DNA of 64,000 nt from the NCBI RefSeq assembly GCF_003334385.1, contig NZ_QOWN01000008.1; one strand, given 5' to 3'. The notes under the pieces are model-generated. The model had not been told where the DNA came from, searched no databases, and was given only the letters and a program-made list of their open reading frames with translations. Positions 14,577 through 14,771 of the stretch are shown piece by piece; positions within the stretch are counted from its first letter, which is position 1; every line of letters begins with the position of its first letter. The translations under genes and the position numbers were made by a program. Origin of the DNA: Escherichia coli (GTDB lineage: Bacteria; Pseudomonadota; Gammaproteobacteria; Enterobacterales; Enterobacteriaceae).

Positions 14577-14587
14577 CACCAAAACTT

Positions 14588-14628
14588 GCTATGCAGAAAT
14601 TTGCACAGTGCGCAATTTTCTGCATAGC
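14588..14628. promoter_or_regulatory. Imperfect 20-bp inverted repeat, candidate AtoC upstream activating site
   Basis: GCTATGCAGAAATTTGCACA / GTGCGCAATTTTCTGCATAGC palindrome seen directly, ~145 bp upstream of atoD. Confidence 0.55.
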
Positions 14629-14710
14629 CGCTCATTCTCCTTATAAATCCCCATCCAATTTATCCCTTCATATTCAATTAGTTAAATAACTAAATCCAAT
14701 AATCTCATTC

Positions 14711-14726
14711 TGGCACTCCCCTTGCT
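14711..14726 (+). promoter_or_regulatory. Sigma-54 (-24/-12) promoter for atoDAEB
   Basis: TGGCAC-N5-TTGCT match to the sigma-54 consensus TGGCAC-N5-TTGCW, ~45 bp upstream of the atoD start. Confidence 0.6.
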
Positions 14727-14771
14727 ATTGCCTGACTGTACCCACAACGGTGTATGCAAGAGGGATAAAAA

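Follow-up and report, generated by a model that had tools for sequence, protein, structure and literature searches.

The window analyzed in this work, that is, the whole stretch of 64,000 nucleotides (64 kb), is Escherichia coli chromosomal DNA with the gene arrangement rcsC-atoSC-atoDAEB-yfaP; in the K-12 strain MG1655, the gene order at this place is rcsD-rcsB-rcsC-atoS-atoC-atoD-atoA-atoE-atoB-yfaP-yfaQ. The ato genes all lie on the plus strand. The first of them, atoS (11368-13194, with the open reading frame obtained by mechanical calling beginning at 11356), codes for AtoS, the sensor histidine kinase of the two-component system AtoSC; over its full length, it fits the NCBIfam equivalog model NF008468 with 994 bits, the cut-off being 646, and corresponds to atoS in MG1655. 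The next gene, atoC (13191-14576), codes for a sigma-54-dependent response regulator, i.e. a bacterial enhancer-binding protein (NCBIfam equivalog NF008469, 1004 bits with the cut-off at 714, covering residues 1-461 of 461). On the other side of the spacer considered here, atoD (14772-15434; equivalog NF007394, 445 bits with the cut-off at 315, covering residues 1-219 of 219) and atoA (15434-16084; TIGR02428, 307 bits against 244; atoA in MG1655) encode the alpha and beta subunits, respectively, of acetate CoA-transferase. They are followed by atoE (16081-17403; TIGR00366, 748 bits against 576; annotated atoE in MG1655), the gene of a short-chain fatty acid transporter of the TIGR00366 family, and by atoB (17434-18618; TIGR01930, 495 bits against 241, full length; annotated atoB in MG1655), the gene of acetyl-CoA acetyltransferase (thiolase II). 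The six open reading frames, of 612, 461, 220, 216, 440 and 394 codons for amino acids, follow the MG1655 order, and each covers the whole of its NCBIfam model with a score above the cut-off, so that the ato module, which the first-pass annotation had proposed to be intact, does consist of six full-length genes at the sequence level.

The domain architecture of AtoC is that expected of an activator of sigma-54 promoters. Specifically, the Pfam domains comprise a receiver (Response_reg, residues 7-115), the AAA+ module (Sigma54_activat, 145-311, and AAA_lid_14, 317-393) and a Fis-type helix-turn-helix domain (HTH_8, 415-454), and the translation shows both the GAFTGA motif and the Walker A motif GESGTGKE. 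Hence, a cognate activator, namely a sigma-54 AAA+ protein with GAFTGA and a DNA-binding HTH, is encoded in the same locus. The spacer in question, 14577-14771, occupies the whole 195 bp between the atoC stop (the open reading frame ends at 14576) and the atoD ATG (14772); a Shine-Dalgarno-like AAGAGGGA (14758-14765, plus strand) precedes this ATG and can be read from the sequence as a putative ribosome-binding site.

The spacer and its immediate surroundings are the same as in E. coli K-12. The 501-bp segment 14400-14900 shows 100% identity to MG1655 and to many other strains; it was found, annotated as atoC | atoD, in 3,926 of the 5,426 complete E. coli genomes, and at least 80% of its length is present in 3,907. 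In about 28% of the complete genomes (1,500 of 5,426), the atoC-atoD junction has no match, so that the ato module is accessory within E. coli; among the matches, one is plasmid-borne, and two copies are present in at least one genome. Over a longer stretch (7400-20186), the window differs from MG1655 by five single-base substitutions, of which atoE carries three and atoS and atoA one each, with no indels in the ato genes; the strain is, therefore, a close relative of MG1655 and not that exact record.

Two features of the flanking regions can be recorded here. In yfaQ, at about 20185-20187, a C-run is one base shorter than in MG1655 (GCC vs GCCC), and the gene, a single one of 1650 bp in MG1655, is represented in the window by two open reading frames (19473-20174 and 20177-21121; region 19473-21121, minus strand); the split means that the gene is a pseudogene with a frameshift or, alternatively, that the homopolymer was misread in sequencing. 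The rcsB-rcsC spacer contains two direct repeats of about 90 bp (approximately 8159-8248 and 8273-8362), which surfaced as secondary BLAST hits; they are 91% identical, lie 114 bp apart and extend slightly into the 3' end of rcsC.

The upstream part of the atoC-atoD spacer contains a palindrome. Its left 20-bp arm, GCTATGCAGAAATTTGCACA, occupies 14588-14607 on the plus strand; the right arm, 14609-14628, reads TGCGCAATTTTCTGCATAGC on the plus strand and GCTATGCAGAAAATTGCGCA on the minus strand. The two 20-nt arms are complementary in 18 of 20 positions (90%) and are separated by one base, G 14608. Thus, the imperfect 2x20-bp inverted repeat of the first-pass annotation is present as described, except that its second arm had been written as 21 nt, with the central G included. 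No other palindrome of this class (20-nt arms, at least 18/20 complementary, loop of 0-3 nt) occurs in the 64-kb window, and composition-preserving shuffling in 500-bp blocks failed to produce arms of 18/20 in any of 200 trials, the best shuffle reaching 17. A search of the window with the half-site pattern GCTATGCAGAAAWTTGCRCA, allowing up to three mismatches, retrieved the two arms, as compared to 0.02 matches expected, and no further AtoC-box-like sites.

The identity of the two arms can be judged from the published data on K-12. Both 20-mers coincide, in sequence and in the offset from the atoD ATG, with the sites in Table 5 of PMC3118216 (Pilalis et al. 2011), where they are listed at -184 to -165 (14772 - 184 = 14588) and at -163 to -144 (14772 - 163 = 14609) as experimentally verified AtoC sites of atoD, with credit to Matta et al. 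2007 (J Bacteriol 189:6324). According to the same paper, AtoC activated by acetoacetate binds the 40-bp palindrome and turns on sigma-54-dependent expression, the site controls the inducibility by acetoacetate, and binding of AtoC in K-12 was shown by EMSA and confirmed in vivo by ChIP (PMC3118216). This letter-for-letter match at the same offsets, with AtoC encoded directly upstream, bears out the earlier assignment of the palindrome to AtoC.

The second element of the spacer is a -24/-12 promoter sequence, TGGCACtccccTTGCT, at 14711-14726 on the plus strand. The segment, TGGCACTCCCCTTGCT, has the form TGGCAC-N5-TTGCT and is the sole zero-mismatch match to the sigma-54 consensus TGGCACNNNNNTTGCW in the 64 kb. 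Its GG (14712-14713) and GC (14724-14725) are 10 bp apart within TGGCAC-N5-TTGCW, and the element faces atoD, the ATG of which lies 47 nt downstream of the -12 GC. An in-frame upstream ATG 30 nt from the -12 GC in the E. coli-type loci is not the atoD start codon, the true distance being 47. The centre of the palindrome, 14608, is located some 104 bp upstream of the -24 GG, in keeping with the figure of about 100 bp given in the first-pass annotation and within the range of roughly 80-150 bp that is characteristic of a dyad upstream activating sequence.

The consensus match by itself has to be treated with caution. With one mismatch allowed, the window contains six matches to the sigma-54 consensus vs 3.6 expected by chance, and five of the six carry one mismatch; since such matches are no commoner than chance, the perfect one counts only by its position and orientation. 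The promoter call is made because this match is perfect, well placed and, in addition, backed by outside evidence. In particular, sigma-54 ChIP-seq revealed a peak, OS21, with the motif CTGGCACTCCCCTTGCT on the plus strand and atoD as the gene (PMC4591121; Bonocora et al. 2015); OS21 has the EcoCyc status 'C', i.e. that of an experimentally confirmed promoter, and its predicted start is 35 bp from atoD. The window sequence is identical to this 17-mer. An RpoN-holoenzyme peak between atoC and atoD, which covers the element, was obtained also in vitro, by gSELEX (PMC8743547). The reading of TGGCAC-N5-TTGCT as a sigma-54 promoter thus stands, the element being identical to the published confirmed atoD motif and adjoining the gene of AtoC.

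Transcription of atoDAEB is expected to start within 14734-14737 on the plus strand. The downstream limit, 14737, is obtained as the motif centre, 14718, plus 19, according to the rule used in PMC4591121. With the start at 14737, the GG would fall at -25/-24 and the GC at -13/-12. The upstream limit, 14734-14735, would follow from footprint coordinates: Matta and co-workers, in 2007, reportedly mapped the atoDAEB start and saw, in a DNase I footprint, two 20-bp stretches at -146 to -107 relative to it. Their promoter mutants are said to have shown sigma-54 dependence, and the induction by acetoacetate was reportedly lost in an rpoN mutant.

One of the one-mismatch sigma-54 motifs in the window deserves a separate remark. 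This motif, TGGCACTGAATATGCT, is located inside the 3' end of yfaY (53837-53852, minus strand) and points to yfaX (rhmR). We know of no activator for this yfaY/yfaX motif. Assuming no indels, it would lie about 70-80 bp from the RpoN gSELEX peak 'yfaX < < yfaY' at K-12 coordinate 2360468 (PMC8743547).

Between the enhancer and the promoter, there is an A+T-rich stretch with an IHF-like site, ATTCAATTAGTTA (14672-14684, plus strand; 7273-7285 in locus L001), which differs from the consensus WATCAANNNNTTR by one mismatch. Matches of this quality are found at a frequency not above chance, 17 vs 12 expected in 14.5 kb, so that the consensus scan alone proves nothing. The block 14671-14690 is, however, invariant in the seven E. 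coli versions considered below, whereas flanking positions vary. Furthermore, the Escherichia and Serratia/Symbiopectobacterium loci have an IHF-like match 43 nt beyond the dyad (41 nt for Escherichia sp. E1V33), and in two of the Serratia/Symbiopectobacterium loci the match to the IHF consensus is perfect. Matta and co-workers, in 2007, reportedly found that IHF is required. We regard 14672-14684 as a likely, though putative, IHF site.

The variation within E. coli was assessed in seven full-length versions of the spacer, sampled down the identity ranking. Of its 15 variable positions, only one falls within the 70 nt that make up the palindrome, the IHF-like site and the -24/-12 element, and the remaining 125 nt contain 14 (Fisher p = 0.012); with so few sequences, which are moreover related, this test counts as supporting evidence only. 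The -24/-12 element is invariant in all seven versions. The single variable AtoC-box position among them is 14598 in the left arm, where A is replaced by T in strain JCH8249. In strain E69, T is replaced by A at 14616 of the right arm, so that the dyad reaches a complementarity of 19/20.

A more drastic change has occurred in E. coli CUVM53, where the region (locus L008, 1501-1760) has suffered a deletion of 147 bp. The ends of the deletion lie in two 9-bp direct repeats, TGGCACTCC, at 14711-14719 and 14858-14866 of the window; the first of these is the -24 half of the sigma-54 promoter, and the second is located within atoD. Lost with the deleted segment are the -12 element, the start site, the ribosome-binding site and the N-terminus of atoD, which is annotated as a pseudogene in this strain.

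For a comparison across genera, one genome per species was scanned with a back-translated 16-residue pattern from the atoD coding sequence, so that the regulatory DNA played no part in the selection. This search yielded eight loci, namely those of E. coli E69, Escherichia sp. E1V33, two Morganella psychrotolerans, Photorhabdus bodei, two Candidatus Symbiopectobacterium and a contig labelled Serratia marcescens. The sequence TGGCAY-N5-TTGCT is found upstream of atoD in all eight, that is, in five genera. In seven of the eight loci, atoS-atoC immediately precede this region, with AtoC identities of 66-99%; the exception is Photorhabdus, with atoDA alone. Each of the Escherichia and Serratia/Symbiopectobacterium loci has a single copy of the core TTGCRCANTGYGCAA (TTGCRCA-N-TGYGCAA) at the corresponding position, and dyads of the form TGCACA-N(1-2)-TGTGCA are present as TGCACAcTGTGCA in Morganella and as TGCACAccTGTGCA in Photorhabdus; taken over all eight loci, the dyad centres are 103-137 bp upstream of the -24 GG. 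For Morganella, the automatic best-palindrome search had returned A+T-rich palindromes, which we consider chance matches and replaced by TGCACAcTGTGCA from an explicit search for the core.

Outside the core, the dyads diverge. The outer arms of the Serratia-type dyad are unlike those of E. coli and yet palindromic (TGAGAAGGAATTTGCGCA c TGTGCAAATTCCTTCTCA, 17/18), and the distance from the dyad centre to the GG changes from 102.5-103.5 bp in Escherichia to 116.5-118.5 bp in the Serratia type, 128 bp in Photorhabdus and about 136 bp in Morganella. Since the enhancer-promoter distance differs between genera, the position is only roughly conserved, and the helical phasing is not. Thus, the TGCRCA-N-TGYGCA core of the dyad is retained in Escherichia, Serratia/Symbiopectobacterium, Morganella and Photorhabdus while the outer arms and the distance to the promoter change, which suggests that it is the core that is read by the HTH domains of the AtoC family. 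This conservation is a small addition to what was known.

Three of these loci show peculiarities of their own. In Photorhabdus bodei (L011, about 4000-5600), the atoDA homologues are preceded by a sigma-54 promoter, TGGCATACCTATTGCT, and by the TGCACAccTGTGCA dyad, with no atoS/atoC in the 4.3 kb upstream and no match to atoE/atoB downstream; with atoS/atoC not nearby, the activator must be encoded elsewhere. In Candidatus Symbiopectobacterium endolongispinus (L016, 1320-8289), atoS, atoC, atoD, atoE and atoB were each recovered by tblastn in several pieces, which suggests frameshifts or pseudogenes in the degrading genome of a symbiont; the dyad has remained intact there, as has the -24/-12 element. 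In Morganella psychrotolerans (L009, L014), a canonical hairpin with a T-run, i.e. a terminator (GCACGGGATATAT...CCCGTGCTTTTTT), is inserted between atoC and the dyad; it is absent from this place in E. coli.

When a palindrome begins just 11 nt past a stop codon, as this one does after atoC, the possibility has to be considered that it works as RNA, namely as a 3' hairpin that terminates or stabilizes the atoSC transcript, in place of or in addition to a role as protein-binding DNA. Its RNA fold is indeed strong, with an interrupted stem of 16 bp, -23.3 kcal/mol and z = -6.6. However, the stem is followed by CCGCUCAUUCUCC, without a T-run, and a terminator scan returned nothing on the plus strand; as the main role of the palindrome, intrinsic termination was rejected on these grounds. 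In Morganella, the terminator is separate from the dyad and precedes it, so that the dyad there is a distinct element. Furthermore, the part that is conserved across genera, the central TGCRCA-N-TGYGCA, corresponds to the loop and the weak inner stem of the predicted hairpin; conservation of the core, and not of the stem, fits recognition by a protein rather than stem stability. Finally, the binding of AtoC to the 20-mers is published (PMC3118216). Taken together, we regard a function of the palindrome as RNA as unlikely. The same low likelihood applies to the dual version, in which the DNA enhancer would double as a 3' RNA hairpin of atoSC that limits read-through into atoDAEB or stabilizes the atoSC mRNA; if such a dual role were real, the palindrome would insulate the constitutive regulator genes from the inducible atoDAEB operon.

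It could also be argued that atoDAEB is served by a sigma-70 promoter in the spacer and that TGGCAC-N5-TTGCT has arisen by chance, inasmuch as the matches with up to one mismatch are at chance frequency in the window (see above) and many sigma-54 sites of E. coli are transcriptionally silent (PMC4591121). Against this, a promoter scan found no sigma-70-like promoter in 14400-14900, the sigma-54 match is perfect, correctly oriented and placed 47 nt before the ATG, being invariant in the seven E. coli versions and kept across five genera, and the element, which adjoins the gene of a sigma-54 activator, is bound by sigma-54 in vivo and is a confirmed promoter (PMC4591121). A sigma-70 promoter therefore appears very improbable. 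As for the inverted repeat being a chance palindrome or one of a mobile element (REP/BIME type) without a regulatory role, intergenic palindromes are common in E. coli, but this one is single copy in the 64 kb (at up to three mismatches), which excludes its origin as a repeated element, none of the 200 shuffles yields its like, other genera have the same dyad core at this position before atoD, and AtoC binding is published (PMC3118216), so that this explanation has next to no chance of being correct.

Hence, we consider it practically certain, with a probability of about 97%, that the atoC-atoD spacer is the native, previously characterized control region of atoDAEB of E. coli, in a version identical to that of K-12. 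On the sequence and the published K-12 data, all elements of this interpretation hold, and no evidence against it was found; the enhancer plus -24/-12 architecture for AtoC, as it had been proposed in the first-pass annotation, is borne out by the dyad, the promoter and the identity of AtoC. The control region was already known and experimentally mapped before; the finding is real but ordinary. In K-12, acetoacetate switches on a Pato-GFP reporter, and mutants in atoS, atoC or atoSC give no response (PMC7618054). Given the 100% identity of the spacer to K-12, atoDAEB is very probably regulated, and inducible by acetoacetate, in this strain as well. The practical value of the result is one of annotation: the ato module of the strain can be described as intact and, very probably, acetoacetate-inducible.

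The operation of this region can be envisaged as follows. AtoS senses acetoacetate and phosphorylates AtoC, as published, and an oligomer of phosphorylated AtoC occupies the 20+1+20-bp dyad at 14588-14628; the binding as such is published, and the domain architecture suggests that it is mediated by the C-terminal Fis-type HTH. The sigma-54 RNA polymerase would wait as a closed complex on TGGCAC-N5-TTGCT at 14711-14726, where its occupancy is published. The A+T-rich DNA with the IHF-like site at 14672-14684 may then bend, so that the enhancer-bound AtoC could touch sigma-54, IHF being reportedly required (Matta et al. 2007). By analogy with the mechanism of the family, ATP hydrolysis by the AAA+ domain of AtoC would open the promoter via the GAFTGA loop, and transcription would begin near 14734-14737 and proceed through atoD, atoA, atoE and atoB.

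Such an arrangement resembles those of the NtrC-dependent glnAp2 and the IHF-assisted, NifA-dependent nifH promoters, where a dyad upstream activating sequence is located about 100-140 bp upstream of GG-N10-GC. The similarity to the NtrC/NifA-type systems extends to the activator, with its receiver, GAFTGA-containing AAA+ domain and Fis-type HTH, and, putatively, to an A+T-rich, IHF-like bend site in between. Unlike in the NtrC-type systems, the core of the AtoC box is TTGCRCA-N-TGYGCAA and not the NtrC consensus, the signal is acetoacetate, perceived via AtoS, and there is one composite dyad of 41 bp instead of several separated sites. Among the ato loci themselves, those of Morganella, Serratia/Symbiopectobacterium and Escherichia sp. 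share the order atoS-atoC-spacer-atoDAEB with a TGCRCA-N-TGYGCA dyad upstream; the distance from the -24/-12 element to the ATG is 47-48 nt in the Escherichia sp. and Serratia/Symbiopectobacterium loci and 43 nt in Morganella, whereas the enhancer is 103.5 bp from the promoter in E. coli vs 116.5-118.5 bp in the Serratia type or about 136 bp in Morganella, which has the separate terminator. With Pato of E. coli K-12 (Matta et al. 2007; PMC3118216), the region shares the locus, the flanking genes, both half-sites and the 17-mer, and the two control regions are without differences.
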